Of a stretch of DNA of 64,000 nt, positions 1 to 56,429 are shown in pieces; position 1 is the first letter of the stretch, and the number at the start of each line of letters is the position of its first letter. The notes under the pieces are model-generated. The model was not told where the DNA came from. It saw only the letters and a program-made list of their open reading frames with translations, and searched no databases. The stretch comes from an uncultured Bacilli bacterium. GTDB lineage: Bacteria; Bacillota_I; Bacilli_A; RF39; UBA660. Position numbers and translations under genes: made by a program. Location: contig CANRIB010000002.1 of NCBI GenBank assembly GCA_947630575.1, positions 30,725 to 94,724 of the forward strand. The letters are read 5' to 3'.

Positions 1-1058
1 CTTGAATCATTCCCTCCTGAAACTAATCTTAAATATGCTCCATAGTATGTTTGTGTTGTTCCAGTTCCACCTTCATCGTCCTCACTTCCCCATGCTGTTG
101 TCTTATCAGTTGAATTTCTTCTATCATTACAAAAACCTACATTTGAATCTATTTTTCCATCTCCATTATTAAATTCATCCTTTAAATTTTTATCAAACCA
201 TTCATTTAGTACAGTCAATACATTGCTTTTAGTAGCAGTATTTCCAAATCCATGTTTTTGATCAATTTGATATTCGAAACCCACGTATTCAACTCTATCA
301 CTATTATCATTATACTTTACATTTGTAGAATTATTTATTAACGCAGATTGTCCACTTGTTGTGTATCCTCCATCACTCGTTGCAGGCTTGCCCTCACCAG
401 CGTATATCATTCTAATTGTTCCATTTCCATTTATTCTAATAATTTGCCAATATATATCCTGACCCAAACTATTTTTTCCAAATTTTACCCAATTATCTTT
501 TACTTTTCCTCTAAAATAATATGTTGTTCCTAAATCATCTGTATCTGAATATAATATGGACTTTTTATTTCCATCTATATGTTCTTCTTTATCTATATCT
601 GTAAATCCATCTTGTCCAATATTTGTAGTTCTATTAGATAAAATTACTTCAGAAGCATTAATTTTGAAATCCAAATACACATAACATTTAGTACCCTTTT
701 TAGTTATTCCTATATATACTTTATTATCTTTATATTCCATTGGTATATTTTTCAATTGGGTAGTACCACTTCCAATTGTACAATAACTTTTATTTGTATT
801 TACTTCATAACTTCCACTTGGCACTTCGTCTTTTAAAGTATAGTTTTCACTACCTTTACTATCTTGTACTTTTAATGCTATTACATTTAAATCTGCTAAA
901 CTATAATTAACATTTCCATTAACTATTTGTATACTTTTGGTTACTTGATATTTTGCTTTGCTATTTGTTATATATATTATTCCCATTATAAATAGTAATG
1001 TTATTATAGCTACTATTATTTTCTTACTTTTTCCTTTACTTAACTTCTCTATTCTCAT
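1..1058 (-). CDS. Paralogous anchored secreted protein, copy 1. This is the N-terminal ~350 aa; the C-terminus lies beyond the window start. It has an N-terminal Lys-rich signal-anchor/TM segment, an N-domain with two Cys, and the family motifs YYFRG...IYWQIIRINGNGTIRMIYAG and GFCNDR.
   Basis: Reverse-strand translation gives MRIEKLSKGKSKKIIVAIITLLFIMGIIYITNSKAKYQVTKSIQIVNGNVNYSLADLNVIALKVQDSKG...; this aligns with ORFs 54131..55582 and 28852..30699. An AGGGAAG RBS precedes the ATG at 1058; an alternative upstream ATG is at 1097. About 290 bp (845-1135) are nearly identical to 55325-55620. Confidence 0.7.
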   Translation of the reverse strand, partial: MRIEKLSKGKSKKIIVAIITLLFIMGIIYITNSKAKYQVTKSIQIVNGNVNYSLADLNVIALKVQDSKGSENYTLKDEVPSGSYEVNTNKSYCTIGSGTTQLKNIPMEYKDNKVYIGITKKGTKCYVYLDFKINASEVILSNRTTNIGQDGFTDIDKEEHIDGNKKSILYSDTDDLGTTYYFRGKVKDNWVKFGKNSLGQDIYWQIIRINGNGTIRMIYAGEGKPATSDGGYTTSGQSALINNSTNVKYNDNSDRVEYVGFEYQIDQKHGFGNTATKSNVLTVLNEWFDKNLKDEFNNGDGKIDSNVGFCNDRRNSTDKTTAWGSEDDEGGTGTTQTYYGAYLRLVSGGNDS

Positions 1059-1078
1059 TAATCTTCCCTTCTTTATAA

Positions 1079-1112
1079 TTGATTTATTATCAATCATATT
1101 AGAAATTTCTAA
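1079..1112. promoter_or_regulatory. Two perfect palindromes, TTGATttattATCAA (1079-1093) and TTAGAAATTTCTAA (1099-1112), in the divergent promoter region between paralog copy 1 and its XRE regulator. They are candidate operators.
   Basis: Palindromes read directly from the sequence. The same TTAGAAATTTCTAA recurs at 55584-55597 in the equivalent position of copy 3. Confidence 0.45.
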
Positions 1113-1234
1113 CTTATACTAAAATTATAATATTAATAATGACAAAAGTCAAGAAAAATATAGATATTCTGAACATAGAATTTTTAAATACCAAATATAA
1201 TGAGAAAATTAAATTCAGAAAAGGACGATATATC

Positions 1235-1690
1235 ATGAATTATAATATGAATTTAAAAAACATTAGAATAAACAATAACTTAAATCAATCAGAAATCGCC
1301 AAAATTTTAAAAATTGCCAGAGTTACTTATACTCATTATGAAACTCAAGAAAACATTATTCCTCTTAAACATTTAATAGTTTTGGCCAATCATTTCAAAG
1401 TTTCTTTAGATTATTTATTAGGTCTAACAGATAAACCAATTAAAACTATAGAAAATATTGACTTAAACAAATGCTCTATTAGGCTTAAAGAATTTAGAAA
1501 AGAAAATAAATTAACGCAAGTTAAATTAGCAACATTTTTAAATATTGACCAACCAACTTGGTCTATCTATGAAAAAGGTAAAAGTCTTATTGGTACCCCT
1601 TTCCTATACATGATATGTGAAAAATACAACATCTCCGCCGACTATCTCTTAGGTCGAACTGATACTCCTAAATATTTAAAAACAAAATAA
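1235..1690 (+). CDS. XRE-family transcriptional regulator with two tandem HTH_XRE (Cro/C1-type) domains, copy 1.
   Basis: Two HTH_XRE domains are recognisable. The first is N-terminal (LKNIRINNNLNQSEIAKILKIARVTYTHYETQE...LIVLANHFKVSLDYLLGLTD). The second is C-terminal (KENKLTQVKLATFLNIDQPTWSIYEKGK...ICEKYNISADYLLGRTD). The track ORF starts at 1139, but an ATG at 1235 (MNYNMNLKNIR) with an AAAGGA RBS aligns with the start of paralog copy 3 (55711). The C-terminal half is about 80% identical to ORF 55702..56166. Confidence 0.75.
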   Translation: MNYNMNLKNIRINNNLNQSEIAKILKIARVTYTHYETQENIIPLKHLIVLANHFKVSLDYLLGLTDKPIKTIENIDLNKCSIRLKEFRKENKLTQVKLATFLNIDQPTWSIYEKGKSLIGTPFLYMICEKYNISADYLLGRTDTPKYLKTK

Positions 1691-1692
1691 AA

Positions 1693-1745
1693 ATGCTGTT
1701 ACAATTATATATACAAGATATATAATATCAGCATTATTTTTTTAA
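1693..1745 (+). terminator. Intrinsic terminator-like hairpin (AATGCTG...CAGCATT) followed by a T-run, downstream of the XRE gene.
   Basis: An inverted repeat is followed by ATTTTTTT immediately after the stop at 1690. Confidence 0.4.
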
Positions 1746-1827
1746 GTCTAAACTTAGGACTAATCTTGTATCCTAATTCTACTATACTAAACCTTAATCA
1801 AGTATATGAGTTTCTTTAGGATATTGG

Positions 1828-1935
1828 GCGCACACCATTCGTGTTATCCACGCGGTTGTTGTTGAGGTAGCCACTCGAATTCACATTGAACACGACAGCA
1901 TTGCCACTGCTGTTGGTGTTATACGGAGACTATAA
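1828..1935 (-). pseudogene. Remnant of the C-terminal end of a fourth member of the anchored secreted-protein family (about 35 codons).
   Basis: A locally GC-rich patch; reverse translation gives ...NAVVFNVNSSGYLNNNRVDNTNGVRPIS*. This is comparable to the paralog 3 C-terminus AHVFGVNSDGYLGSDYVYTTRGVRPVINLKADT. The upstream frame is closed, so only a fragment remains. Confidence 0.5.
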
Positions 1936-1962
1936 AAAATCAAACGTTTCAAAGATTAGCCC

Positions 1963-3135
1963 TTAACTAGTTATTTTTGCCATTTCTTTTTTAGCTTTAA
2001 TAGTTTTATTTTCAATAGATACCCTCTCTACCATAAATAACATAATTATAACATTAACGGTAAAGGAACCTCCATAACTAAGAAGTGGTAAAGGAACACC
2101 TGTTAAAGGTATTAAAGCTAAAATACCTAACAAATTAATTAATATATGCATAAGTAAATATAAAAATACTCCATAAGCCAAAATACTTAATCGCAAATTC
2201 TCTGCTTCTCTTGCAATTTTAAGTATTCTATAAAGCATAATCATATAACCTAAAATTAATAATACCCCTGTAACATATCCTAATTCTTCTACTATAATAG
2301 GAAAAATAAAATCAGTATGACTTTCCGGCAAATACAGATATTTCTGACTGCTATTTCCTAAACCTACCCCAAATAATCCCCCATTATGAATCGCAATAAA
2401 CCCATTACAAACTTGATAACCTGTATCTTCTGTATATCTTGAACAAGGATTTCTAAATTCAAATCTTTTTAATTGCCTTGAATTAAGTAGTTCTGTTCCA
2501 CTATAAAGTAAAGCAAGAAGCCCTACTCCAATACATACAACTCCTATTTTTAACACTTTAATAATATTTCTTTTAACTAAAGGAATACTTATAAATACAA
2601 AAAAAGTAATTCCACATATAATTAAAGCTGTTCCTAAATCTGGTTGTAAAGCAATTAATATTGCAATTATTAAAGCAACAACCACCGGAAACAAAAAAAC
2701 ATAAATATTCTTTGTCTTCATTTTATCAAGCTTACTATAAGCAACAGCCATAAATATAATTATAACTGATTTGGCAAACTCGCTTGGTTGTAAAGCAAAA
2801 GGTCCTATATCATACCAACTTCTCGCATTATTAGTAATACGTCCATAAACAAATAAACCCACTAACGCGACTATTATTCCTAAAACCATAAAGGGTGTTA
2901 AATATTTATATTTTGATGTTGGCACTCTAATAACTATTAAAAATCCCACTAAAAATGCAACTACTAAAAATATTGCTTGTCTTACAAAAAAATAATATTG
3001 AGGAACATTATATCTTAAAACTGTCGAAACACTAGAAGCTGAAAAAATCATAATCAGTCCTAATATACTAAATATGAACATTAATACTAATAACCATATA
3101 TCCATTTTTGAAAACAATTTTTTCACTCTGTTCAC
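1963..3135 (-). CDS. SEDS-family peptidoglycan glycosyltransferase / lipid II flippase (FtsW/RodA/SpoVE family).
   Basis: 390 aa with about 10 TM segments; motifs GGLFGVGLGNSSQKYLYLPESHTDFIFPII and LPLLSYGGS are typical of SEDS proteins. Confidence 0.85.
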   Translation of the reverse strand: MNRVKKLFSKMDIWLLVLMFIFSILGLIMIFSASSVSTVLRYNVPQYYFFVRQAIFLVVAFLVGFLIVIRVPTSKYKYLTPFMVLGIIVALVGLFVYGRITNNARSWYDIGPFALQPSEFAKSVIIIFMAVAYSKLDKMKTKNIYVFLFPVVVALIIAILIALQPDLGTALIICGITFFVFISIPLVKRNIIKVLKIGVVCIGVGLLALLYSGTELLNSRQLKRFEFRNPCSRYTEDTGYQVCNGFIAIHNGGLFGVGLGNSSQKYLYLPESHTDFIFPIIVEELGYVTGVLLILGYMIMLYRILKIAREAENLRLSILAYGVFLYLLMHILINLLGILALIPLTGVPLPLLSYGGSFTVNVIIMLFMVERVSIENKTIKAKKEMAKITS

Positions 3136-3258
3136 CCTACTCTAATTTTAACATACTTATCTTCCAAATAAAAGAAATTTTAAAAATTAGGGTATTTTTA
3201 ATGTCAAAAAAGCGCCCAAATGAGTAAACTATAATAGATACATAAAGGAGGTATAAAT

Positions 3259-3456
3259 ATGTATTACTATGGAAACAATGGTTACTACGGTGGTGGATAC
3301 GGTGGATACCAACCTTGTTGTAATAATAATGGAGGCGGCTATGCTGGGTACACTAGTGGTTATGGCTTAGGTGCTGCTATCTGGATTGTCTTATTCATTT
3401 TACTTGTAATTATCATTGGTGCAGGTTGGAATTTTGGCAATAACAATAATAACTAG
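3259..3456 (+). CDS. YjcZ-family small sporulation protein (Gly/Tyr-rich N-terminus, single C-terminal TM).
   Basis: 65 aa, MYYYGNNGYYGGGYGGY...AAIWIVLFILLVIIIGAG; a strong RBS AAAGGAGGT lies 8 nt upstream. Confidence 0.55.
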   Translation: MYYYGNNGYYGGGYGGYQPCCNNNGGGYAGYTSGYGLGAAIWIVLFILLVIIIGAGWNFGNNNNN

Positions 3457-3532
3457 GAAGCAAAAACTTCCTTTTTAATTGAAAAAAAAGCAATTTTATG
3501 TTAAAATAATACTTGTTTTAGGGGTGAAGAAC

Positions 3533-4084
3533 ATGAAGTTACCAGATTTAGTAATCTTAGACGAAAAAGATAAAAGATTAAGAGAAACTAGTAAAGAAGT
3601 TATATTTCCACTTAGCCAAGAAGATAAAGCTCATATTCATGATATGATAGATTATCTAACTATGAGTCAAATACCCGAATATAGTGAAAAATATTCTCTT
3701 CGTCCTGGCATGGGTCTTGCTTATATTCAAACAGGTATTCCCAAAAGAATATTTGTCATTGTAGAAGAACTTGATGAAGGAGAATTTAAAAATTACATTG
3801 TTATTAATCCCAAAATAATTAGCCACAGTGAAGAAATGATTTATGTTGGCGAAGGCGAAGGTTGTCTAAGCGTCAATCGAGAGGTTGAAGGAATAGTCCC
3901 TAGATATGCTAGAATTACTGTTGAAGCTTATGATGAACTTGGAAATAAGTATCAAATAAGAGTAAGAGAAGATATAAGTGTTGCCTTCCAACATGAAATA
4001 GATCACTTAAATGGCATCTTATTCGTTGATAAAATTGACCCTAAAAATCCTTATAAAAATAGATCTAAATACCGTGAAATATAA
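3533..4084 (+). CDS. def: Peptide deformylase.
   Basis: PDF motifs GMGLAYIQ, EGCLS and QHEIDHLNG (HEXXH). The start was chosen at MKLPDL, preceded by a GGGGTGAAG RBS (the track ORF begins at 3479). Confidence 0.85.
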   Translation: MKLPDLVILDEKDKRLRETSKEVIFPLSQEDKAHIHDMIDYLTMSQIPEYSEKYSLRPGMGLAYIQTGIPKRIFVIVEELDEGEFKNYIVINPKIISHSEEMIYVGEGEGCLSVNREVEGIVPRYARITVEAYDELGNKYQIRVREDISVAFQHEIDHLNGILFVDKIDPKNPYKNRSKYREI

Positions 4085-4127
4085 GATAGTAACCCTATCT
4101 TTTTTAATTAAAAAAATCTAGACAAGT

Positions 4128-7070
4128 CTAGACATTTTCTAAATTAACACTTACTAGTTTACTAACTCCTGACTCTTGCATTGTAATACCATATAATACA
4201 TCGGCATATTCCATCGTTCTTTTTTTATGGGTAATTAAAATAAACTGACTAGCCTCTTTCTTACTTTGCAAATATTTACCAAAAGTATCTACATTAGCTT
4301 CATCTAAAGCTGCTTCTACTTCATCTAATATACAAAAAGGACTAGGTTTAACATTTAATATTGCAAACAAAACTGCAATCGCCGTCAAAGTTTTTTCTCC
4401 ACCTGAAAGTAAAACAATTGATTTTAATTTCTTTCCTGGAGGTTCTGCTTCTATTTCTATCCCAGTATTTAAAATATCATCTGGATTAGTTAATCTTAAA
4501 TTACCTTTACCCCCCTTAAATATCTTTCTAAATACTTCATTAAACTCTTTACTAATTAAATCAAAAGTAGTTTTAAATTTATCAATCATAATTTTATCCA
4601 TTTCTGAAATAATATTATTAAGTTCCAAAGATGATTCCTCTAAATCTCCACTTTGTTTAAGTAAAAAATTATATCTTTCACTAACTCTTTCATATTCCGC
4701 AATCGAACCTGTATTAACCGTTCCCAAACTAAATATTTCTTTTTTTATTGCCTCTACTTTACTTCTAGCTAAATCAATTGGTAAATCTAACTCATAATTA
4801 GTTTTAGCATATTCATAAGTTAAAGAATAATTCTCCGATAATTCTAAAAGTAAATTATCTAATTTAACATCATACTTTCCTAATTCTATTTCTTTTTCTT
4901 TTAAATTATTTTGAACATGATTATATTCTAAATTAATCTTCCGATATTTAGTTTCTACTTCATTTATTTCTTCATCTAATTCAGACTTTTGTTTCTTTAA
5001 CTTTTCTAATTCTTTTAAAGCTAATTCTTTTTCACTAGCTACTTGATTAGATTCTTCCAAAATACTTATTAACTTTTGATCTAATTTATTAGTACTTATC
5101 TCTTCGTTTCCTTTAATTTCTAATTCTTTCTTATTTAAAGCTTCTTCTATTCCTCTAATCTTATTAGTTCTTGTATTAAGTATTTCATTTAAATTAATTA
5201 ATTGTTTAGAAATCTCACTTGTTTTATCTTCTAAAACCCCATAATTATTATTAAATTCTCTTTCTTCTTTTCTTAAATTATCTAATTCTATTTTTGTAAC
5301 TTCTAATTGTTCCTGTAATTCACTCAACTTTAATTTATCATTTAAATGACTATTATTATTTTTTATTGACCCTCCTGTAACAGAACCTCCCGAATACAAT
5401 ATTTCTCCTTCTAGTGATACTACCCGATATTTATATCCAAGCACTCTTCCTATTTCATTTAAAGCATCCATATCTCTTACAACAATTACATTTCCTAATT
5501 GATTTTTAATAATATTATCATATTCTTTATCATATTTCACTAAATTAGATGCGATATTAATAAAACCATTATTGTACTTAATCTTTTCTATATCACTATC
5601 TAAAACATTTTTACCCTTAATAACATTAAGTGGAAAAAAAGTAGCTCTACCTAGATTATTTTCTTTTAAATAACTAATACACTCTTTCGTACTATTATCA
5701 TCTTCTACTACCAAGAAATTAATAGCCCCACCTAAAGCTGTTTCTATTGCTATGTTATATACTTGTTCTACTTGAATAAGATTCCCAATTGTATTATGAA
5801 CTCCTCTAAGTCGCATATTATTAAGCACACTTCTAACAGCACTCGGCATTTTTGAATTATTACTAATGTTTTCTTCTAAAATATTAATTTTATTTTCTAA
5901 AATTAAAATATTTTTCTCTTTTAAATTTATATCATTACTTAAATTATTCTTTTTAACTTTCGCCATAATAAGCTTATTATCAAGCTCATCTTTTTCAATA
6001 GACTTTTCTTTAATATCATTAATAAGATCTGTTAATTTAGACTTTTCCGTTGTCATATCTTTTTTTAAAGCTAATTCTTCTTCTTTTAATTTTATTAAAG
6101 CTTCTTCTAAATTACTTTCGTTAGTTTCATATTTTTTTCTTTCCATTGTCACTAACTTTTCCGCTTCCAAACTAGCTAAATTCTCTGTAAGTTTAATATA
6201 TTCATTATTTTTAGCTGTAATCTCTTCTCTTAGTTTTAAATCATCTAATTTTAATTTTTCCAATTTCGAATTATCTTCTGAATTATTAGAACTCATCTTC
6301 CCTAATTCTTCTTGAAGTTTTGCTACTTCTACTTTTATTTTCTTATAATCAATATTAATTTCTGAAATATCATGAGCAATTAAAGCAATTTCAATATTTT
6401 TAAGTTCTTCTGTTAAAGCTAAATATCTTTTGGCAACTACACTTTGTTTCTCTAAAGGTTTAACACTTTTTTCTAATTCTTCTATTACCAGTTTAATTCT
6501 TGCCAAATTCTCTTGCGTTTTATCAAGTTTTTTTAAACTTGCTTCTTTTCTTTTTTTATACTTTAAAACTCCCGCGGCATCCTCAAATATTACTCTTCTT
6601 GCTTCTGGCTTATTACTTATAATATCCATTACACTACCCTGAGAAATAATATTAAAAGAATCATTACCTGCTCCTGTATCTAAAAACAAATCTGTAACAT
6701 CTTTAAGTCTTACTTTACTATTATTAATATAATATTCATTTTCTCCTGTTTTATATATTACTCTTTTAACTTCTATTTCTTTAAATTCACTATTTAAATA
6801 ATGATCACTATTATCAAACAAAAGAGAAACATACGCTCTAGATAAAGGATCTCGTGTTGCCGAACCATTAAATATAATATCACTCATTGCTTCAGTTCCT
6901 CGTAAAGATTTTAATGATTGTTCCCCAAGTACCCATCTAACTGCATCAACAATATTACTTTTACCCGAACCATTAGGCCCTACAATCGCCGTAATACCTT
7001 TTTTAATTTCTAAATCTATTTTATCGGCAAATGATTTAAAACCAAATGCCCTAATATTCTTTAAATACAA
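4128..7070 (-). CDS. smc: Chromosome segregation protein SMC.
   Basis: N-terminal Walker A (GPNGSGKSN), long coiled-coil arms with a hinge, and a C-terminal signature (LSGGEKTLTAIA) with Walker B (ILDEVEAALD). Confidence 0.9.
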   Translation of the reverse strand: MYLKNIRAFGFKSFADKIDLEIKKGITAIVGPNGSGKSNIVDAVRWVLGEQSLKSLRGTEAMSDIIFNGSATRDPLSRAYVSLLFDNSDHYLNSEFKEIEVKRVIYKTGENEYYINNSKVRLKDVTDLFLDTGAGNDSFNIISQGSVMDIISNKPEARRVIFEDAAGVLKYKKRKEASLKKLDKTQENLARIKLVIEELEKSVKPLEKQSVVAKRYLALTEELKNIEIALIAHDISEINIDYKKIKVEVAKLQEELGKMSSNNSEDNSKLEKLKLDDLKLREEITAKNNEYIKLTENLASLEAEKLVTMERKKYETNESNLEEALIKLKEEELALKKDMTTEKSKLTDLINDIKEKSIEKDELDNKLIMAKVKKNNLSNDINLKEKNILILENKINILEENISNNSKMPSAVRSVLNNMRLRGVHNTIGNLIQVEQVYNIAIETALGGAINFLVVEDDNSTKECISYLKENNLGRATFFPLNVIKGKNVLDSDIEKIKYNNGFINIASNLVKYDKEYDNIIKNQLGNVIVVRDMDALNEIGRVLGYKYRVVSLEGEILYSGGSVTGGSIKNNNSHLNDKLKLSELQEQLEVTKIELDNLRKEEREFNNNYGVLEDKTSEISKQLINLNEILNTRTNKIRGIEEALNKKELEIKGNEEISTNKLDQKLISILEESNQVASEKELALKELEKLKKQKSELDEEINEVETKYRKINLEYNHVQNNLKEKEIELGKYDVKLDNLLLELSENYSLTYEYAKTNYELDLPIDLARSKVEAIKKEIFSLGTVNTGSIAEYERVSERYNFLLKQSGDLEESSLELNNIISEMDKIMIDKFKTTFDLISKEFNEVFRKIFKGGKGNLRLTNPDDILNTGIEIEAEPPGKKLKSIVLLSGGEKTLTAIAVLFAILNVKPSPFCILDEVEAALDEANVDTFGKYLQSKKEASQFILITHKKRTMEYADVLYGITMQESGVSKLVSVNLENV

Positions 7071-7088
7071 CTTTAATCATCCTTTACT

Positions 7089-7796
7089 TTAAGCTCTCTT
7101 ATTAAGTGCCGCCTTAGCTGCTTGTTGTTCAGCTTCTTTTTTACTTTTACCGACACCTCTACCATAAACTATTCCATCAATAACCACATCAAAAACAAAA
7201 GTTTTATCATGACTAGGCCCCTTCTCACTCACTAACACATATTCTAATGTTTTTCTATCCGTTTGGACTAATTCTTGTAATCTTGACTTATAATCTCCCA
7301 AAAACATATGATGTTCTTTAATATAAGGAGTTAATACTTGAAGAACATAATCTTTAGCAACCATAAAACCTTTATCTAAATATATTGCTCCTAAAACACT
7401 TTCAAAACAGTCCGCGATAATCGTATCATTAACATCTTTTAATTGCCCATTTCCTACTTTAATATATTTATCAATACCTATATCTTTCGAATATTGTGCC
7501 AAAGCTTCTTCACATACAAAACTTGCTCTAACCTTTGATAATTCTCCTTCCCCCACTTTTAAAGTATTATAAAAGTATTCACTTGTAATTAACTGTAAAA
7601 CTGCATCCCCCAAAAATTCTAGCCTCTCATAATTTTCTCCCCCATGTTCATTTGAATAACTACTATGAGTTAAAGCCATCTCTAAAAGTTCTTTATTATC
7701 TATCTTAATTTTAAATTTATCTAAAAAATTCATATCAATCAATCCTTTATAATCTAAAACCATTATATCAAAAGAAAACAAAAAAATAAACAGCAA
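7089..7796 (-). CDS. rnc: Ribonuclease III.
   Basis: RNase III signature HSSYSNEHGGENYERLEFLGDAVL plus a C-terminal dsRBD (GKSKKEAEQQAAKAAL). The likely true start is the ATG at 7733 (MNFLDKF). Confidence 0.9.
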   Translation of the reverse strand: MLFIFLFSFDIMVLDYKGLIDMNFLDKFKIKIDNKELLEMALTHSSYSNEHGGENYERLEFLGDAVLQLITSEYFYNTLKVGEGELSKVRASFVCEEALAQYSKDIGIDKYIKVGNGQLKDVNDTIIADCFESVLGAIYLDKGFMVAKDYVLQVLTPYIKEHHMFLGDYKSRLQELVQTDRKTLEYVLVSEKGPSHDKTFVFDVVIDGIVYGRGVGKSKKEAEQQAAKAALNKRA

Positions 7797-9754: not shown

Positions 9755-9831
9755 TGGTGACCAGTACGAGATTCGAACTCGTGAATGCTGCCGTGAAAGG
9801 GCAGTGTGTTAAGCCGCTTCACCAACTGGCC
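9755..9831 (-). tRNA. tRNA-Glu (anticodon UUC).
   Basis: The reverse complement GGCCAGTTGGTGAAGCGG...CTGCC-CTTTCAC-GGCAG...GTTCGAATCTCGTACTGGTCACCA folds as a cloverleaf; CCA is encoded. Confidence 0.85.
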
Positions 9832-9838
9832 AAAAAAA

Positions 9839-9915
<77 letters not shown>

Positions 9916-9927
9916 ATAACAAATTAA

Positions 9928-10003
9928 TGGTGTCCCCTTAGGGATTCGAACCCTAGACCCACTGATTAAGAGTCAGTTGCTCTACCAGCTGAGCTAAGGA
10001 GAC
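9928..10003 (-). tRNA. tRNA-Lys (anticodon CUU).
   Basis: The reverse complement GTCTCCTTAGCTCAGCTGGTAGAGCAACTGACTCTTAATCAGTGGGTCTAGGGTTCGAATCCCTAAGGGGACACCA; the anticodon loop is CTCTTAA. Confidence 0.85.
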
Positions 10004-13687: not shown

Positions 13688-13716
13688 AAGATAACACCCA
13701 ATTAAAGTGTTATCCT
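13688..13716 (-). terminator. Hairpin GATAACAC-n9-GTGTTATC followed by a T-run on the minus strand, overlapping the stop of the giant ORF.
   Basis: Inverted repeat read directly; minus-strand reading gives the hairpin followed by CTTTTTAT. Confidence 0.45.
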
Positions 13717-16700
13717 TTATTAACTTTTAAATCACTGACATCTTGCTGTGGGGTATCTAAAAATATATCATCTAGAAAATCATCAGTTTCTTTTTTAAGT
13801 GCATAATATAAATCTCTTCTTACTTGATTACTTTCTGTAAGTCCAAGTAAAGGTGCTAATTCTAATCTATTACACCAATAATCACTAATACATGTCGGTT
13901 TTCTTTCTAAAAGTTTTCCTACATCTGTTCTATAATGCTCTGCATCTTTTATTAAGGCATCATAGAATCTTTGAACATAATCTTTAACATTAACTACTTT
14001 ATTAAGTTTTGCTAAATTATCTTTTGTTTCTTGAAATCTATATTTTTTATATGTATCAAAATCTTCAAACTTACCTTCTGTTATTGTTTTAAGAGCCATC
14101 GTATCCGTTTTATAATTAGCATAAGAAACTCCTTTAGATGGATCATCTATATTATTATATATTTCTTTTCTTATATAATTAATATTACTATTATATTCAA
14201 TATAACCCTTTTCATAACCTGCATAACCAAGCATTTCATATGCAATCCATTTTAAAGCATAAGAATCAGGTCTACCATCTGGATTATTTGGCTGATACCA
14301 ATGCACTGAATTAAGTCCTTCTCCTCCATAAGAGTTAGAGCCTCTACTAGCTACTTTATAAACTCCTGGATAAAGCATTAATCTATTATTAATTAAATCA
14401 TCTATCGAACTTAAATGCATATCTTGAAAAGCTTTAGTATCTAAATAAGAATATCTTGTGGTCTGTCTTGCTCTAAACTTAGAATATTCACTTCCCCCAT
14501 ATTTTTCTTCATTTGGATAAGATACTTGAACCGCCGTATTAGCCTGATCATCAGGATCAAGTTGTAAAAATGCCATTGCTTCTATATAATCCATTACATA
14601 TATTGTTTTAAATACTTTATTATAATAATCATATATTTCTGCTGGAGTATCTATTCTTTCTGGAGTATAATTTGACCCAATTTGAGTATCTTTATCAAAA
14701 TATACTGATAAATTCATAACTATATCATTAGGTCCAAAAGATTGCATTAAATTACTATCCGCGTAATCTTCTCCACCCGCATCAAATCTTCGTCCATTAT
14801 TTCGTAAGAATAATCTTGCATCAATATTATGGGCTGATTCATGTGACCAAGTATGATATGTATATTCTTGTACTTCCCCATATTCTGGAATTAAATTACC
14901 ATCCATTAAACCTTCGGCACTCCAATCAATCCTATCACCCCACGCAACCGCGGCATTACCATCACTATAAGCCCATTGACCTACAACTTCATTAAAATTC
15001 TTATGGAACGGATCACTTGTTGTATAAGGTTGCTGATAAGTTGAAGAACCATTTATATCATAAGTATATCTTTTATCTGTTTGGAAAGTATGAATATCAT
15101 TAAATACTTGAGCATCATTAAGTAATTTATAAGCTGTATCATAATAACTAGCCATTCTAGTTGTATAACTCTCCACTCTTCTTTTAAACTTAACTTGCTC
15201 ATCTGGATTTTCTGGATCAACCATATAAGTCCTCTCTGAACCTATAATAAATTGCACTGGACTTGAAATAATATAAGCCGCATTTTTAGGTAAAGTAAGA
15301 ATTGGTAAAATAAAGTTATATGGCTTATAGCTATTACCTTTATGATTTGCATCTTCATTACTAAAATGATCCCATAAAGTATATTGCACTTCAGGATGAT
15401 CTTTAATTGGTATTTCAACTAAATAACCTTTAAATTGTTCTTTAGTCCATATATCCATATCCTTATCACTAAACTCTGTTACCACATATTCCAAGAACTT
15501 AGCAATTGTCTTTAAATTAGTATATTCTCCTAAAACAGAAGCATATCTTGTATTAGTTTCATTTGTTTTAAAATTATTACTATCTTTAAAGAATAAATCT
15601 GTTATTCTTAAAGGCGTTAAACTATTATCAAACCCTTGCATATTAAATAAAACAAAATCATATAACTTCATACCATCTATATCAATATCATAAAAACGTC
15701 TTAAATAATTATACATATATAAAACTTTTTCTATTTTTTTATCTTTCTTAATTTCTCTTTCTATATAGCTATTAATACCATCATTATTCGTAGTATTTGT
15801 ATAATTACTATTTGCTAAAAATTTTAAAACAAACTCTTTTAATTCTTTACTTGTTACCTCATTATAAAAATCCCGATATATTCTACTATCATCCATAGAT
15901 GTTAAAATATCTAAATTATTCGTATAATCTAAACTACTTAAATAATTAGTTAAATTATTTACAACCTGTGAATTAGCATCTATTACATAATGATTATAAT
16001 TATAATCTATTCCTAGTTTATCAATTCTATAACTAGCTACCATATCATATGTATTATCAAATCTAACATCATATTCTATCTTTTCTTTAGTTTTAAATAC
16101 TATTTTAATCTTACTTATTTTTTTAACATTATCACTAGTTAAATAAGTAACAATACCCCCAGTTTTATCTACTGGTACTATATGACTTATTTCTTTATTA
16201 TCTAAATAATCATCATTAATATATTTCGCCGTATTTATTATTTTATCTTTATCATAAAAAGGCATTAATTTAGTTAAATTTTCATATAATATTTCTTTAT
16301 TAGAATCATATCCTTGCATATCACTATAAGGGGATTTTACTTCAAAATCTTCTCCTTTAAATATTGGTGGATTATCAAAAGATACTCCATCTAAATTCCA
16401 GATACTATCATCCCAATGAAGAGTATTTTTAAAGAAACTTGCATTAATTTCCTTTTTAGAAATAACATTAATACTACTATTTTGATTAGAAGCTAATTTT
16501 GATTCTTCCAGTTCATAAACATTATTAGCTTTAATCCCATTACCATGAACTCTATAACCACCTGTTCCATCCGCAAAACTTACACTATTATTTAAATAAG
16601 TATTATTTACATTGTTAGTCCAACCAAGGAAACCTGCTTTTGTTCCTGAACTTGTCGTTAATTCAACTTTACTATAACAATTTTCAATTGTCGCCTTATC

Positions 16701-28851: not shown

Positions 28852-30699
28852 TTATTGGACTATGTAAGGGTTAGAACTTGTTCCTATATCTTCTCCATCA
28901 GTGAAGGTAAATGTTGTATCTGCCTTCAGATTTATTACTGGGCGCACACCAAAACTGTATGTTATTCCAGCAGCCCAAAGAGCTCCATTTTCTGAAACGG
29001 TTATCATATTAGCACCATAATGAGATGGAGACATGGTCCAATAAGTTTGATTTGTATATAACCAATAGCCATCATTATTAGCACCAAATCCTCCTGCATA
29101 CATTACTTCATCGGCGGATATTAGCCCTACTGGATATATCAAAGATTTATTTCCTGTAATTGCCTCTTTATTTGTGTAAAGATCATTTTTTTGTAAGCAA
29201 CTAAACATAGGCTGATGTTTTTGAAATACTCTTATATATCCTCCATAGTATGTTGTTGTTTTTTCTACTCCATAATTATTTTTATCAATTATAGAATTAG
29301 AAGTATATCCATCATATGGAGTTCTATCACCACAAAATCCTGCATTTATATCTAATTTAGATGTTAATTTTTTATCATCTATTGCTGTTTTATACCACAA
29401 ATCAATAATCTTTTTTATTTCACTATCATTAATATTGCTATGAGTATTATTATATCCTAATTCACTTTTAGGTTGATTTACATTTCCATACATATATCCT
29501 AAATAAGCATTATCTTCATATTTTGAATTAAATTCATAGGTTTCATTATTTAATTGTGTATTTACTCCCGAAAGTTTAGTTGTTGCTCCATTATAAATTA
29601 ATCTAATTGAACCATTACTATTGATTCGTATAATTCTCCAATATAAATCTGCAAATTTTATCCAATTATTCGTTACATTACCACGAAAATAATAGGTATC
29701 CCCTTCATTATCTTTTCCTTTACAAAGTAAGCCTTCTCCTTCATATTTTAAATTAATTGTTGGTTCTACTTCACTAGGACACCCTTCATCGATAGAATTG
29801 GATTTCAAATTTAGAGTTAATAATGTTTTATCTGCTGTTGGTTTAGAAAAATATAAATAACAAGCTGTTCCACTTTTACTCACATTTGATAATATTATCT
29901 CATTATTTTCTATTCTTACTTTTACTTCTTCATTATTACATTTTGTTTCTTCTTGATTTAATATATAATTATTATCAGGGATTTCTTCTACTTCTTCATA
30001 TTTGCCTTCTTCTGTTTCTTTGTAAAACGCTACTAAGTTTATATCGGCTTTAGTATTACTTATCTCTCCATATACTTTCCCTTCAAATTTATTTCCTATA
30101 TCTATACTTTGATTTCCATTATCTGGATATTCTACTATTATATAATAATATTTCTTTGCTCCTTCTTCTTTTGATGTTATAAATTCTGTATCAGTTATCT
30201 TTATTGTTTGTTCTTCTGTTAGTTTTGGTATCTCTCCTTCATTTATTGGTTCTCCTAATTCTTCTATGTTACTTGTACATACTTCATTTAATTGTTGGGC
30301 TCCATTTACTACTTTCTTTTTCTTTTCACAAGTTAATTCTATTTCTTTTTCTATATCTGATACATATACTTTATATTTTAAATTAGTATTTAAATTATTT
30401 GTTCCTACCCATGTTAAGTTATAGGCTATGAGTTCATTATTACCTGTTGCAGTTGCTGTTACTTTAGATAATGTTTGATGTCCTGGATATATATCTATAT
30501 CACCAAAATTTATATTACCACTTATATCTAATGTTGAACCATTTACAGTCGCGGTTCTTCCTTCCGTGGTTGCACCTGTTCCTTTAAAAATAGTTTTACC
30601 TACAAAGTATGCTAAAGATACTCCTATTCCTAATATTAATACACTTAACAATAATATTACTCTTTTATTCTTTTTCATATATCCATTTCCTTTACCCAT
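28852..30699 (-). CDS. Paralogous anchored secreted protein, copy 2 (615 aa).
   Basis: N-terminal signal-anchor (MKKNKRVILLLSVLILGIGVSLAYFVG) and an N-domain with Cys pair (KCNNEE...GTACYLYF). C-terminal family motifs: TYYFRGNVTNNWIKFADLYWRIIRINSNGSIRLIYNG, AGFCGDRTPYDGY, YYGGYIRV, YPVGLISADEVMYAGG, YWTMSPS and GVRPVINLKADT. The likely start is the ATG at 30678 (AAAGGAAA RBS). Confidence 0.75.
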   Translation of the reverse strand: MGKGNGYMKKNKRVILLLSVLILGIGVSLAYFVGKTIFKGTGATTEGRTATVNGSTLDISGNINFGDIDIYPGHQTLSKVTATATGNNELIAYNLTWVGTNNLNTNLKYKVYVSDIEKEIELTCEKKKKVVNGAQQLNEVCTSNIEELGEPINEGEIPKLTEEQTIKITDTEFITSKEEGAKKYYYIIVEYPDNGNQSIDIGNKFEGKVYGEISNTKADINLVAFYKETEEGKYEEVEEIPDNNYILNQEETKCNNEEVKVRIENNEIILSNVSKSGTACYLYFSKPTADKTLLTLNLKSNSIDEGCPSEVEPTINLKYEGEGLLCKGKDNEGDTYYFRGNVTNNWIKFADLYWRIIRINSNGSIRLIYNGATTKLSGVNTQLNNETYEFNSKYEDNAYLGYMYGNVNQPKSELGYNNTHSNINDSEIKKIIDLWYKTAIDDKKLTSKLDINAGFCGDRTPYDGYTSNSIIDKNNYGVEKTTTYYGGYIRVFQKHQPMFSCLQKNDLYTNKEAITGNKSLIYPVGLISADEVMYAGGFGANNDGYWLYTNQTYWTMSPSHYGANMITVSENGALWAAGITYSFGVRPVINLKADTTFTFTDGEDIGTSSNPYIVQ

Positions 30700-30804: not shown

Positions 30805-31056
30805 ATGTATGAAGATTTGAAGTTAGAAAGATTAAAAGGTTTAAGAGAAAATAAAGATTTAAAACAAGAAGAAATAGCTAGACTATTAAATATAACTCAA
30901 AGTGCTTATAGTTATTATGAAATGGGAAAAAGACAAATCCCCAGTGATGCTCTAATTAAACTAGCATTATTTTATAATACTTCTGTTGATTATCTTTTAG
31001 GTTTAACTGACGAAAGAAAACCTTACCCAAAAAGCTTTTTAACCAAAAATAAATAG
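30805..31056 (+). CDS. XRE-family HTH transcriptional regulator (single HTH), cassette copy 2.
   Basis: LKGLRENKDLKQEEIARLLNITQSAYSYYEMGKRQIP...LALFYNTSVDYLLGLTDE; RBS AAAGAGG. Confidence 0.75.
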   Translation: MYEDLKLERLKGLRENKDLKQEEIARLLNITQSAYSYYEMGKRQIPSDALIKLALFYNTSVDYLLGLTDERKPYPKSFLTKNK

Positions 31057-54130: not shown

Positions 54131-55582
54131 TTATTGTACTACAAATGGACTATTTGTTGTTCCTTGACCTGTAAATTGGGTATCAGCCTTCAGGTTTATT
54201 ACTGGACGTACACCTCTTGTAGTGTACACGTAGTCGCTCCCAAGGTAGCCATCAGAATTCACACCAAACACGTGAGCCTCGCTAACGGCAAAGCGAAACG
54301 GAGACATTGCCCAATAATTTTGTTCACCTGTATACAACCAATAACTTGTATTACTTGAATCTCTTCCTCCTGCAAAATTTACCTCGTCTGCCGTTATTAA
54401 GCCTATTGGATTGGTTAATTTTCTATTTCCAGTTTTAGCTCCACTTACTGTATATAAATCATTACTTGCATTTGGACAATCAAATGTGGGTTTTCTTGGT
54501 GATTTATATGTCCTTACATATGCTCCATACCGAGTTGATGTTGTTCCAGCTCCATATTTAGTTTTATCTGGTTGGGATGTTGCACTTGTTCCATTCCATT
54601 CATATGGTGTTCTATCTCCACAAAATCCCGATTCTGTATCTATATATTCAGTTGCATTTTTTTCATTATTTTTTGCTTTTGATAATACAGTTTCATACCA
54701 ATTATCTATATATTCTTTTATTCCACTATCATGGGTGTTTGCATGAGTTGCATTGTAGCCATCTAAAGTTTGTGTTTGACTAGTTTCTCCATACATATAT
54801 CCTACATATGCATTATCCCCATCTTTTGCATCTTTACTGAATACGTGACCATTTCCATTATCAAGCATTGTCGCTTTTCCTGTTGCATTAGACGTTGTTC
54901 CACTATAAATTATTTTGATTGAACCATTACTATTTATTCGGATGATTCGCCAATACATATTTGCAAATAATACATAATTGTTGTTTATCGTTCCTCTATA
55001 GTAATATGTTGGTAATCCATTTTCTTCTCCTTCATATATCCCATTAGTTGCTTCTTCACATCCATCTTCACATGATGTTTTATTAAAATCTGGTACATAT
55101 AAATTAACATCTATAGTTCCTATTGCTGTTTCTACTTTCTTAGTTGTTGTTACATCTAAATATACATAACATTTTGTTCCCTTTTTGTTTATACTTATAC
55201 TAACTCTATTATTTTTATATTCCATTGGTATATCTTTATGCTCTAGATTATCTCCTGGATATTTGCAATAACTTTTATCTTTGTTTACTTCATAATTACC
55301 AATTGGCACAGTTTCTGCTTGATTATATGTTCCACCACCTTTACTATCTTGTACTTTTAATGCTATTACATTTAAATCTGCTAAACTATAATTAACATTG
55401 CCATTAACTATTTGTACACTTTTAGTTATCTGATATTTTGCTTTGCTATTTGTTATATATATTATTCCTACTAGCAATACTAATATTGTTATAGTTAATA
55501 TTATTTTTTTATTTTTTCCTTTACTTAACTTCTCTACTTTCATTAATCTTCCCTTCTTTATAATTGACTTATTATCAATCAT
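54131..55582 (-). CDS. Paralogous anchored secreted protein, copy 3 (483 aa in the track; likely 470 aa from the ATG at 55543).
   Basis: N-terminus MKVEKLSKGKNKKIILTITILVLLVGIIYITNSKAKYQ... is nearly identical to copy 1 at both nucleotide and protein level. C-terminal motifs: TYYYRGTINNNYVLFANMYWRIIRINSNGSIKIIYSG, SGFCGDRTPYEW, RYGAYVRT, NPIGLITADEVNFAGG, YWAMSP and GVRPVINLKADT. Confidence 0.8.
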   Translation of the reverse strand: MIDNKSIIKKGRLMKVEKLSKGKNKKIILTITILVLLVGIIYITNSKAKYQITKSVQIVNGNVNYSLADLNVIALKVQDSKGGGTYNQAETVPIGNYEVNKDKSYCKYPGDNLEHKDIPMEYKNNRVSISINKKGTKCYVYLDVTTTKKVETAIGTIDVNLYVPDFNKTSCEDGCEEATNGIYEGEENGLPTYYYRGTINNNYVLFANMYWRIIRINSNGSIKIIYSGTTSNATGKATMLDNGNGHVFSKDAKDGDNAYVGYMYGETSQTQTLDGYNATHANTHDSGIKEYIDNWYETVLSKAKNNEKNATEYIDTESGFCGDRTPYEWNGTSATSQPDKTKYGAGTTSTRYGAYVRTYKSPRKPTFDCPNASNDLYTVSGAKTGNRKLTNPIGLITADEVNFAGGRDSSNTSYWLYTGEQNYWAMSPFRFAVSEAHVFGVNSDGYLGSDYVYTTRGVRPVINLKADTQFTGQGTTNSPFVVQ

Positions 55583-55597
55583 ATTAGAAATTTCTAA
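55564..55597. promoter_or_regulatory. Operator-like palindromes TTGACttattATCAA and TTAGAAATTTCTAA in the divergent promoter of cassette copy 3.
   Basis: Same sequences as in copy 1 (1079-1112), with one mismatch in the first palindrome. Confidence 0.45.
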
Positions 55598-55710
55598 CTT
55601 ATACTAAAATTATAAACTCTTATATACTAAAAGCCAAGAAAAATATAGATATTTATTCGGTTTTATAAGTTACATCTTAGAAGTATGAGAAAATTAAACT
55701 GGTGATACAT

Positions 55711-56166
55711 ATGAATTATGGAATTAATCTAAAAACTTTAAGAGAAAGAAATGGTAAAACAGCAGTATCAATGGCTAAATTAATTAATGTCAGTGATAGT
55801 CTTTACAGCCGATACGAAAAAGAAAAACAAAGCATGCCCCTAAAACATCTAATAACTATATGTGATTACTTTAATGTTTCATTAGATTATATTTTTAATT
55901 TTACAAATACTAGACAATATCCCAATAATAACAAAACATATAACATAGAACTAATAAAAATAAGATTAAAAGAATTAAGAAAAGAAAATAATATTACGCA
56001 AGCAAAAATATCCGAATATCTTAACATCGACCAACCCACTTGGTCCATTTATGAAAAAGGAAAAAGCCTAATAGGCCTTCCCTTTTTACATATGTTATGT
56101 ACTAAATATCATATCTCTGCCGATTATCTTTTAGGTAGAATAAATAATCCTAAATATCTTAAATAA
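55711..56166 (+). CDS. XRE-family regulator with two tandem HTH_XRE domains, cassette copy 3.
   Basis: INLKTLRERNGKTAVSMAKLINVSDSLYSRYEKEKQ...LDYIFNFTN and KENNITQAKISEYLNIDQPTWSIYEKGKSLIGLPFLHMLCTKYHISADYLLGRIN. The track start at 55702 is a GTG; an ATG at 55711 is preferred. Confidence 0.75.
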   Translation: MNYGINLKTLRERNGKTAVSMAKLINVSDSLYSRYEKEKQSMPLKHLITICDYFNVSLDYIFNFTNTRQYPNNNKTYNIELIKIRLKELRKENNITQAKISEYLNIDQPTWSIYEKGKSLIGLPFLHMLCTKYHISADYLLGRINNPKYLK

Positions 56167-56324
56167 GCTCATGTCGAATTATGTCGAACTCTTTTTCTAG
56201 ACATATTCTTTTTTTATGTTTATAATATTAACTTGAACATTTAAGGCGAAGTGCCTACTTTATATTTCCTTTCCATTTCCTTTACTGAAACATCAGGGGG
56301 TTATGATAAAGGAGGTACTAAGTT

Positions 56325-56429
56325 ATGATAAAAGTAATTTTACCATTAAATTTGTTTTTAAAAACAAAAAAGGCACTTCTCTCCATCAAGTTTAAACTTA
56401 ATGTTGAGATAAGTGTCAACAAAAACTAA
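56325..56429 (+). CDS. Small ORF of 34 aa (MIKVILPLNLFLKTKKALLSIKFKLNVEISVNKN) with a near-consensus SD; candidate small protein or leader peptide.
   Basis: AAAGGAGGT at 56308-56316, 8 nt from the ATG. Upstream promoter-like TAGACA-17-TATAAT (about 56193-56227); downstream perfect palindromic terminator at 56501-56517. Not in the supplied track because it is under 60 aa. Confidence 0.35.
   Translation: MIKVILPLNLFLKTKKALLSIKFKLNVEISVNKN

Follow-up and report, generated by a model that had tools for sequence, protein, structure and literature searches.

A shared 5′ module in dispersed lectin-like surface-protein cassettes of an uncultured rabbit-gut Bacilli bacterium, probably kept alike by gene conversion between paralogs

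Dispersed adhesin paralogs with conserved 5′ regions that exchange sequence by gene conversion are known from the babA/babB genes of Helicobacter pylori and the opa genes of Neisseria, which encode Gram-negative outer-membrane proteins of other folds than those described here and which are not known to be paired with an XRE regulator. A second group of systems is found in Mycoplasma, where the vsp genes of M. bovis, the vpma genes of M. agalactiae and the vsa genes of M. pulmonis have a conserved 5′ UTR and signal-peptide region and differ in the rest of the gene (PMC2268961). These encode lipoproteins with an AAKC lipobox, lie in one clustered locus with a single promoter, and are rearranged through inversions by a site-specific recombinase. 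In the lpl genes of Staphylococcus aureus, a highly conserved block in each paralog serves as a site of homologous recombination and shuffles the variable regions flanking it, with incongruent phylogenies on its two sides (PMC2568036); there the block is central and the genes, compared among strains, form a tandem array within a single genomic island. In Anaplasma msp2/p44 and Borrelia vlsE, conserved 5′ (and 3′) ends surround a body that is replaced by recombination (PMC4534519); expression is from a single site, and the donors are numerous silent pseudogenes.

Here we describe a related arrangement in an uncultured Bacilli bacterium (RF39; UBA660) from rabbit gut (GCA_947630575.1, contig CANRIB010000002.1). 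The window, by which we mean the whole stretch of DNA analysed, comprises 64,000 nt (contig positions 30,725 to 94,724, forward strand) and contains two cassettes that share a 5′ module, copy 1 and copy 3. At least six dispersed cassettes with the module occur in the source organism, the remaining four (L001, L003, L040 and L042) coming from assemblies of other samples and being assigned to the organism only via identical neighbouring proteins and similar coverage. Related rabbit-gut Bacilli MAGs have 5-7 module cassettes each, and homologs in the wider surface-protein family number over 4,000. As in the Mycoplasma systems, the paralogs share their 5′ UTR and signal-peptide region, and the bacteria are likewise small-genome, host-associated Bacillota relatives; unlike them, the proteins lack a lipobox, the copies are scattered and each comes with its own near-consensus promoter and XRE gene, and breakpoints vary. 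A conserved nucleotide block acting as a recombination site in paralogs recalls the lpl genes, although here the block lies at the 5′ end, takes in promoter and leader, and recurs at dispersed loci. Unlike msp2/p44 and vlsE, every copy looks expressible, judging from its own promoter, RBS and regulator.

In copy 1 the module extends on the minus strand from the −35 box to codon 69 (852..1168), and it aligns without gaps to 55337..55653 of copy 3, also on the minus strand. Between 852-1130 and 55337-55615 (offset +54485) the two are 93.2% identical (260/279), and over 845-1135 at the same offset the figure is 91.4%. The first-pass annotation had described 845-1135 and 55325-55620 as essentially identical; the step in identity is real and lies where it was placed, but with 19 mismatches the wording was too strong. 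Perfect runs occupy 852-914 (63 nt, the longest), 946-983, 1028-1051, 1055-1082 and 1084-1130. There are two variable patches, at 985-1028 and 1131-1143. The first (44 nt) encodes the hydrophobic core of the signal anchor and is 77% identical between the copies, the differences being mostly first- and second-position changes, while the second is a 13-nt patch in the promoter spacer, past which the tract continues beyond 1135 into the −35 box region, with 24/25 positions matched between 1144-1168 and 55629-55653. A permutation test on polymorphic sites returned −108..+210 from the ATG (window 849-1166) as the best fragment for this pair (p≤0.0005). Outside the tract identity drops to 72% over 669-844 and 66% over 760-844, so that divergence is not uniform when the cassettes are properly aligned, and downstream of this flank the two genes are scarcely alignable, with protein bodies only 39% identical. 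Amino-acid identity between the XRE genes is about 35% across their first HTH, rising to about 75% across the second. The initial estimate for the downstream coding sequence and the XRE genes was ~75-80%; a single BLAST HSP spanning 669-1680 averages 74.5% identity.

We consider, with a probability of roughly 80%, that this tract, shared as 5′ module by the copies of a multicopy cassette, evolves in concert through interlocus gene conversion between paralogs. The cassette, which occurs in a clade of uncultured rabbit-gut Bacilli, consists of a double-HTH XRE gene divergent from a promoter, palindromic leader, RBS, signal anchor and N-terminal segment that lead into a variable lectin-like surface protein. 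All evidence for conversion is comparative, that is, known here from sequence comparison and not from observed events. At that level it demonstrates that the module is homogenised within the genome at the nucleotide level, including synonymous sites, that the gene bodies are old, divergent and shuffled at variable breakpoints, and that in the module same-species paralogs are more alike than the syntenic orthologs of a sister species. Repeated non-reciprocal recombination between paralogs would keep the module homogenised, its coding part probably supplying the export or anchoring function and the N-terminal segment needed by every paralog. The conserved block may then act as a homology anchor by which variable bodies are exchanged between loci, diversifying the surface repertoire.

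The content of the tract was read correctly at the outset, and comprises promoter, palindromes, RBS, signal anchor and the first 69 codons. The copy-1 promoter is of sigma-70 type (1124..1152, minus strand; −35 TTGACT at 1147-1152, 17-nt spacer, −10 TATAAT at 1124-1129) and matches 11/12 consensus positions, the best in the region, an architecture that is also present in related genomes; that of copy 3 is TTGGCT-17-TATAAT (55609..55637, minus strand). Between the −10 box and the RBS of copy 1 lies a perfect 14-bp palindrome, TTAGAAATTTCTAA (1099..1112), a candidate operator, which an exact-site search found at two places in the window, one per cassette, the other being at 55584..55597 in copy 3. 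The palindrome is identical in seven genomes, and in 201 kb of related loci all 25 of its 25 sites lie 36-54 nt upstream of the ATG of a family gene, placing it in the start region of the promoter and making it specific to these genes. A second inverted repeat, ATTGAT-aataa-ATCAAT (1078..1094), stands just upstream of the RBS GAAGGGAAG (1063..1071, minus strand), which is 5 nt before the ATG at 1056-1058. This repeat forms the main hairpin in the leader RNA fold (z=−2.3), and in other copies it is swapped for different, still palindromic sequences such as TATGATTgatAATCATA. The tract as a whole is not unusually structured as RNA (z=−0.53), and with only the small leader hairpin to set against this an RNA-level constraint on the tract was rejected. 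Rfam families in the window are limited to three tRNAs, and the JGI metagenomes scanned held no exact match to the 22-nt leader. A structured element at 56230-56465 is found only at the copy-3 locus and its ortholog in the sister species, and was on that ground rejected as part of the cassette.

The regulators are encoded divergently on the plus strand, at 1235..1690 (cassette 1, 151 aa) and 55711..56166 (cassette 3, 151 aa; Pfam and NCBIfam annotation). Each has two HTH_3/HTH_19 stretches (Pfam, E about 1e-19 to 1e-20), and the cassette-1 protein, for which database gene callers give a 183-aa form from an upstream ATG, is assigned by NCBIfam to the RstR-family repressors (83.9 bits against a cut-off of 80). 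PHROGs and PADLOC return generic HTH matches only for the XRE genes. We infer that TTAGAAATTTCTAA serves as operator for a repressor with an HTH domain, the simplest candidate being the XRE protein encoded next to it. The palindrome would span the region where transcription starts from a near-consensus promoter. However, the XRE paralogs differ in both recognition-helix regions although the palindrome beside them is invariant, and L004, the ortholog of cassette 3 in the sister-species MAG (bin40), has no XRE gene, so the factor that binds the palindrome may be something else.

A more ambitious interpretation, which we hold to be improbable, is that the cassettes make up a transcriptional antigenic-variation network, in which a single invariant operator and leader is common to at least six variable lectin-like genes that each have their own fast-evolving double-HTH regulator. 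Any regulator could then control all copies in trans, so that one or a few paralogs were expressed at once, and gene conversion would keep the control-and-export module interchangeable, allowing new bodies to be plugged in. If true, this would be antigenic variation by regulator cross-talk rather than by DNA inversion or a single expression site, and it would be set in an uncultured, reduced-genome lineage of gut Bacilli.

One line of evidence for concerted evolution by gene conversion comes from synonymous sites. Where copies 1 and 3 have the same amino acid they use the same codon at 51/55 positions in the tract, a fraction of 0.93, against 68/96 elsewhere, or 0.71 (Fisher p=0.0016), and pooled over six cassettes the fractions are 0.87 in the tract and 0.72 elsewhere, codon usage predicting 0.58-0.60. 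The module is also present in L001, L003, L040 and L042, with a mean pairwise identity of 94-99% at +82..+200 and 94% at −68..−38. In an 87-nt coding core compared across 40 genes from 15 genome groups, identity is 0.87 within genomes (0.97 in this organism) and 0.64 between genomes. It is quite unlikely that purifying selection alone, acting most strongly on promoter, operator, signal peptide and N-terminal segment and without any exchange between copies, accounts for these values. The N-terminal motif is indeed nearly invariant in 71 diverse homologs (A35, K36, Y37, T40, G48, Y52, D56 and L57), and the innermost non-coding part of the leader (the −10 box and GTATAAGTTAGAAATTTCTAATAT) is 0.85 identical between species against 0.87 within genomes; because these two figures are so close, the identity of this palindromic core is to be ascribed mostly to purifying selection, and its conservation across species points to selection on a regulatory site. 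Selection on the protein, however, leaves synonymous sites free, yet the codons agree as above, and third positions of the coding core are 0.93 identical within this organism against 0.53 between genomes, near the expectation from codon bias. The unremarkable fold of the tract RNA does not indicate a nucleotide-level constraint either, and for the coding part this explanation is already largely refuted.

The sister-species MAG allows the same question to be asked with orthology fixed by synteny. Its locus L009 is the syntenic ortholog of cassette 1, the neighbouring genes for FtsW, a small GY protein and def being 87-93% identical in nucleotides, and L004 stands in the same relation to cassette 3. 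Tract identity is 91.7% between copies 1 and 3 and 94.0% between L009 and L004, while all cross-species pairs are at 84-85%. Informative sites in the tract group by species in 22 of 22 cases and by orthology in none (22:0:0), pairing paralogs by species contrary to the synteny-defined orthology and so arguing further against selection without exchange. The orthology of copy 1 and L009 ends near window 902, inside the tract, and over 852-901 the two are only 48% identical. Recombination or gene conversion between the copies, as first proposed from the mosaic pattern, thus passed the synonymous, synteny and breakpoint tests; the epithet "recent" holds in that conversion postdates the split from the sister species, with its 87-93% identity in the flanking housekeeping genes, but it was not an event that has just happened, because there are 19 differences that either arose since or escaped conversion.

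The bodies of the genes have a different history. Within genomes they are only 50-55% identical in amino acids, and in 174 triples of genes the body is nearer to a gene of another genome and the core nearer to a paralog in its own genome, the reverse being seen in 8. The body of copy 3, for instance, is 51% identical to that of L016, a locus of another genome, and 39% to that of copy 1, whereas its core is 56% identical to L016 and 94% to copy 1. These relationships bear on the view that whole cassettes were duplicated recently and then diverged under very fast diversifying selection outside the 5′ module, which we regard as very improbable. In its favour, the bodies of copy 3 and L001 share 79% amino-acid identity, and for 21/29 genes the closest body comes from their own genome, so that part of the within-genome similarity is owed to recent duplication. 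Synonymous codon identity in the bodies, however, is 0.71, near the saturation set by codon usage (~0.6), which makes the bodies old and not fast-evolving; cassettes 1 and 3 are both syntenic in the sister species and are therefore older than the split; and neither the copy-1 nor the copy-3 body has the other as its closer relative, both being nearer to genes of other genomes.

Gene conversion with shuffling of old bodies accommodates this, and the search for breakpoints found them at places that differ between pairs, so that the genes are mosaics. In a nearest-neighbour scan L003 resembles copy 1 to about +250 and copy 3 beyond, and copy 1 at +252..+350 resembles L042 and L040; clustering of matches is significant (p≤0.0005) in 10/15 cassette pairs. 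It is highly improbable that crossover in the tract is instead the work of a dedicated site-specific system, of the kind known from Mycoplasma vsa/vsp/vpma and from shufflons, rather than of general homologous recombination. The layout is similar, with a conserved 5′ UTR and signal-peptide region and a variable remainder (PMC2268961), but breakpoints are scattered over hundreds of bases instead of being fixed, and the two cassettes in the window lie 54 kb apart among housekeeping genes, both on the minus strand, and every cassette has its own promoter and its own regulator. Neighbour genes called in the fetched cassette loci contain no recombinase or integrase Pfam domain, the window ORFs beside cassettes 1 and 3 being annotated in part, and in the fetched loci the cassettes lack the clustering, single promoter and adjacent recombinase of a phase-variable locus.

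It is scarcely credible that the mosaic is only apparent and arose in assembly, through the collapse or wrong joining of paralogs at the repeat from short metagenomic reads, for although two independent assemblies of the copy-1 locus stop within the tract (at window 877 and 958), copy 1 runs past the window edge with no identical full-length protein in the database (best match ≤57% identity), and family genes of related MAGs are often at contig ends, the 19 differing positions speak against collapse, window 877-7690 and 958-1833 reappear at 100% in independent assemblies from other samples, as does the entire copy-3 locus at 99.9% (L039), a module followed by a divergent body is contiguous in L001, L003, L040, L042, L043 and many loci of other MAGs, and +172..+250, across the copy-1 boundary, is 90-97% identical to the independently assembled L003. 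The join of tract to body in copy 1 is given solely by the present assembly, the junction lying at the 63-nt perfect repeat at which the other assemblies stop. Assembly breaks in these genomes are explained by the module repeat.

Concerted evolution of the module by gene conversion is a familiar kind of evolution, seen here in a surface-protein family that was itself previously uncharacterised; it is a clean yet conventional case of a concerted 5′ module beside old, shuffled bodies. This uncultured clade of rabbit-gut Bacilli keeps a sizeable, actively recombining lectin-like surface repertoire of 5-7 or more copies per genome, all built on one exchangeable control-and-export module. The 14-bp operator candidate, the defined promoter and the defined regulator family offer a concrete way to study how these organisms, so far seen only as MAGs, interact with host or phage.

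The copy-1 surface-protein gene (1..1058, minus strand) extends past the start of the window, leaving 352 codons visible, of which the first 69 (852..1058, minus strand) encode a K-rich N-terminus, a transmembrane signal anchor, an SKA|KY motif and a conserved segment with the sequence QVTKSIQIVNGNVNYSLADLNVIALKVQDSKG. The copy-3 gene (54131..55543, minus strand) encodes 470 aa and is identical to a database protein (P0001); its AF2 model has a pLDDT of 88.4, with a TM helix at residues 11-33 and low pLDDT at residues 34-55. N-termini of the form MK(V/I)EKLSKGK..GIIYITNSKAKYQ have no lipobox, the first cysteine appearing not before residue 93. A further family member, copy 2 (28852..30699, minus strand), has a related C-terminal body and a different N-terminal module, the tract being absent from it, and is paired with a single-HTH XRE regulator (30805..31056, plus strand). 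PHROGs and PADLOC gave no matches for the surface genes, and a phage or defence origin was rejected for them.

By fold, the copy-3 body matches phage DUF6273 proteins (E=6e-6, prob 1.0), a likeness that is weak by sequence, Pfam DUF6273 scoring 18.5 and 20.2 bits on the surface proteins, below the cut-off of 23.5; the best match among solved structures is the Lcl C-terminal domain, and is weak (E=0.4). DUF6273, a C-type-lectin-like ligand-binding domain of phage receptor-binding proteins, is listed in the literature among the targets of DGRs. A motif scan of the window found no YxDD ORF of reverse-transcriptase size, and the sole TR-like fragment, an N-codon-rich, non-coding 3′ fragment at 1800-1935, differs from the available gene 3′ ends by mismatches over all four bases that are not adenine-specific, so DGR diversification was rejected on present data, and on this evidence the genes diversify through recombination, not mutagenic retrohoming. 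Genes of the family have GC-rich 3′ ends. The fragment at 1800-1935 is 88% identical in L009; since the flanking genes reach 87-93%, it is conserved no more than they are and is an inherited gene relic.

The two cassettes that share a 5' module (the tract, window 852-1168 and 55337-55653) are built alike, each pairing a surface-protein gene with a divergent XRE regulator, in a window that is AT-rich (26.5% GC). In cassette 1 the surface gene starts at ATG 1056-1058 on the minus strand and runs off the window start with 352 codons visible, while XRE-1 (1235-1690, 151 aa) carries two HTH_3/HTH_19 domains. Cassette 3 has the same layout, with a 470-aa surface protein (55543-54131, minus strand) and XRE-3 at 55711-56166. 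Gene calls in public assemblies begin XRE-1 at an upstream ATG at 1139 (183 aa, adding window 1139-1234); such an ORF would cross the -35 box of the surface gene. The XRE-3 alignment and the position of the HTH favour ATG 1235. Copy 2 (615 aa, 30699-28852, minus strand) has a different N-terminal module followed by a related C-terminal body, as we term the variable remainder of the gene, and adjoins a single-HTH regulator (30805-31056); comparison with copies 1 and 3 in the window found the tract absent from it.

Copies 1 and 3 were compared by global alignment and by ungapped counts at an offset of +54485. The identity step reported in the first-pass annotation lies where it had been placed, with 93.2% identity (260/279) over window 852-1130 against 72% in the flank at 669-844 and 66% at 760-844, although the description of the tract as essentially identical was too strong. 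The tract is itself a small mosaic, with 95.5% identity at 852-984, just 77% in an internal patch at 985-1028 and 97% at 1029-1130 (98.6% across the leader and promoter, 1059-1130). The longest perfect run is 63 nt (852-914) and, beyond a variable 13-nt patch in the promoter spacer, the match restarts at 1144-1168 (24/25). A Sawyer-type permutation test on polymorphic sites returned window 849-1166 as the top fragment (p<=0.0005). Other assemblies, made independently, match window 877-7690 and 958-1833 at 100% and the copy-3 locus at 99.9%, and two of their contigs stop inside the tract, as a multicopy repeat predicts. A full-length copy-1 protein against which to check the tract-body junction was not found in the database; the conclusion is independent of this junction. 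Many loci from independent assemblies have this layout without a break.

Exchange between copies, as first proposed from the mosaic pattern, is supported by synonymous sites, cross-genome comparison, synteny and breakpoints. Where copies 1 and 3 encode the same amino acid they share the codon at 51/55 positions in the tract and 68/96 elsewhere (Fisher p=0.0016). When six cassettes are pooled, same-codon use is 0.87 in the tract and 0.72 elsewhere, against roughly 0.58-0.60 expected from codon usage alone; this makes the tract young and the bodies old, with the latter close to saturation. A comparison of 40 genes, drawn from 15 genome groups, gives an 87-nt coding core a within-genome identity of 0.87 (0.97 in the window's organism, with third positions at 0.93) and a between-genome identity of 0.64 (third positions 0.53), while bodies within genomes share just 50-55% amino-acid identity. 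Triples in which the body is nearer to another genome's gene but the core nearer to the same-genome paralog number 174, against 8 of the opposite kind. The low third-position identity between genomes further counts against a nucleotide-level function of the coding part, as does the RNA folding of the tract, which is ordinary (z=-0.53).

Gene conversion is also indicated by synteny with the sister-species MAG Lapin-028 bin40, whose loci L009 and L004 are the positional orthologs of cassettes 1 and 3, respectively; around cassette 1, FtsW, def and a small Gly/Tyr-rich protein show 87-93% nucleotide identity between the two genomes. Where all four sequences have the tract, copy 1 and copy 3 are 91.7% identical, L009 and L004 94.0%, and every cross-species pair 84-85%. 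After three edge-artefact columns were dropped, 22 informative sites unite the paralogs by species and 0 by orthology, the textbook mark of concerted evolution following a species split. The orthology of copy 1 and L009 stops at about window 902, within the tract, and the two species therefore have different bodies behind the same syntenic regulator. Pairwise alignment bears out the mosaic, with identity steps at the tract edges and breakpoints that vary: L003, another cassette of the same population, is 90-97% copy-1-like to about +250 (counted from the surface-gene ATG) and thereafter resembles copy 3 and L001 at 85-92%. Over +252..+350, copy 1 resembles L042 and L040 at 88-95%.

At least four more cassettes with the same module exist in the window's own population, in different housekeeping contexts but with shared samples and similar coverage: L001 (P0002), L003 (P0003), L040 (P0045, truncated) and L042 (P0008). 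Mean pairwise identity among the same-population cassettes is 94-99% at +82..+200, 94% at -68..-38 and 35-60% in the bodies. The surface-protein family is large (>4,358 matches). Its tract-type N-terminus occurs in uncultured Bacilli MAGs of rabbit-gut metagenomes, each with 5-7 copies, of which many sit at contig ends. In other MAGs (L032, L024) a copy-2-type single-HTH regulator lies beside genes with the tract-type N-terminus, and N- and C-terminal halves are swapped in P0005 and P0006; together with the combination in copy 2, this suggests that shuffling acts on regulator, 5' module and body separately. Truncated copies, likely pseudogenes or frame-shifted members of the repertoire, occur at L040/L041 (P0045; 375 aa, then a 47-aa ORF), L018, L032, L014 and L031 (157, 116, 295 and 223 aa).

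The palindromes, RBS, signal anchor and gene start earlier ascribed to the tract are all present, its coding part amounting to 69 codons. The copy-1 promoter (TTGACT 1147-1152, 17-nt spacer, TATAAT 1124-1129, minus strand) is the best match of the region at 11/12, and copy 3 has TTGGCT-17-TATAAT. A perfect 14-bp palindrome, TTAGAAATTTCTAA (1099-1112), is followed by a second inverted repeat, ATTGAT-aataa-ATCAAT (1078-1094), and the RBS GAAGGGAAG (1063-1071). The 14-bp palindrome has two exact sites in the window, one in each of cassettes 1 and 3, and in 201 kb of fetched loci all exact copies (25/25) sit 36-54 nt 5' of a family-gene ATG. In seven genomes, the coding cores of which diverge by 10-40%, the -10 box and GTATAAGTTAGAAATTTCTAATAT stay the same or almost the same. 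Identity over a 40-nt non-coding core is 0.87 for within-genome and 0.85 for between-genome pairs; the coding core of these pairs gives 0.91 and 0.69. This conservation points to purifying selection on a family-specific regulatory site; just downstream of the palindrome, the second inverted repeat and RBS region show species-specific changes that keep the concerted pattern.

The palindrome may be an operator spanning the start region of a strong promoter, for which the adjoining XRE is the natural candidate binding protein. Caution is urged because both XRE recognition regions vary, because the XREs outpace neighbouring genes in evolution and because the XRE is missing at L004 (2582-3000, compared with window 55711-56166), where an unrelated 65-aa ORF replaces it and the promoter and palindrome are retained. 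XRE-1 and its L009 counterpart are 69-71% identical at the nucleotide level between species, against 87-93% for adjacent housekeeping genes; evolution of these regulators is unusually fast.

In an AlphaFold2 model of the copy-3 protein (pLDDT 88.4, pTM 0.81), residues 11-33 form a transmembrane helix, residues 34-55 have low confidence, and the remainder is a confident fold of beta-rich and alpha/beta domains. The low-confidence segment is the best-conserved part of the family, with A35, K36, Y37, T40, G48, Y52, D56 and L57 near-invariant in 71 homologs. In fold, the body resembles DUF6273 proteins of phages (E=6e-6); in sequence, the DUF6273 match is weak, under Pfam's cut-off. The body's top match among solved structures, a weak one, is the C-type-lectin-like C-terminal domain of Lcl; from these matches, the family proteins are most likely exported or anchored ligand-binding proteins.

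Several known systems behave similarly. The vsp, vpma and vsa families of Mycoplasma conserve the 5' UTR and signal-peptide region and vary in the rest (PMC2268961), as do the cassettes here; the system is not of the mycoplasma type, however, for it lacks a lipobox, a clustered locus and a single promoter, and the genes called around the cassettes in the fetched loci include no recombinase. Nor does the evidence identify it as a DGR target. Another parallel is the lpl genes of S. aureus, in which a conserved block is the homologous-recombination site that shuffles variable regions (PMC2568036), and gene conversion likewise renews cassettes with conserved ends in Anaplasma and Borrelia (PMC4534519). 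The evolutionary behaviour is of a known kind; the uncharacterised part is the regulatory layout, a private double-HTH regulator for each paralog and one invariant palindrome common to all.

Other elements lie near the cassettes. Downstream of XRE-1, window 1800-1935 (minus strand) holds a GC-rich (47-48%) 3'-end remnant of a family gene (SPYNTNSSGNAVVFNVNSSGYLNNNRVDNTNGVRPIS, then stop) with no ORF upstream of it; it occupies the same place in bin40 (L009) at 88%, close to the flanking genes, and an independent contig stops within it at 1833. It resembles a DGR template repeat but does not pass the adenine-mismatch test. The 3' parts of family genes are also locally GC-rich (40-52% against 26.5% for the genome, at 54161-54340, 28901-29140 and 61-120), possibly through the codon requirement of the conserved GVRPVINL/YW..SP region or GC-biased conversion. 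A 236-nt intergenic element (56230-56465) between XRE-3 and a YbbR-like gene, without a match in Rfam, takes on a long, closed fold with multiple branches (-70 kcal/mol; z=-7.6 on the plus and -7.5 on the minus strand). Conservation at the syntenic bin40 locus (L004 2288-2524) is 88.7%, with a partial second copy across that cassette (L004 4699-4786), and the consensus fold of three sequences has 75 pairs, 2 of them compensatory. Compared over 5,413 nt, the window and the corresponding locus of another sample show only 5 differences, each of them within a single hairpin of this element (56287-56299), which is a candidate ncRNA or MITE-like element. Elsewhere, a small Gly/Tyr/Asn-rich membrane protein (MYYYGNNGYYGGGYGGYQPCC..., 3259-3456) shows 93% nucleotide conservation in bin40, three tandem tRNA genes (9758-10003, minus strand) are the window's sole Rfam matches at the gathering threshold, and a giant ORF of 2,478 aa occupies 13710-21146 on the minus strand.
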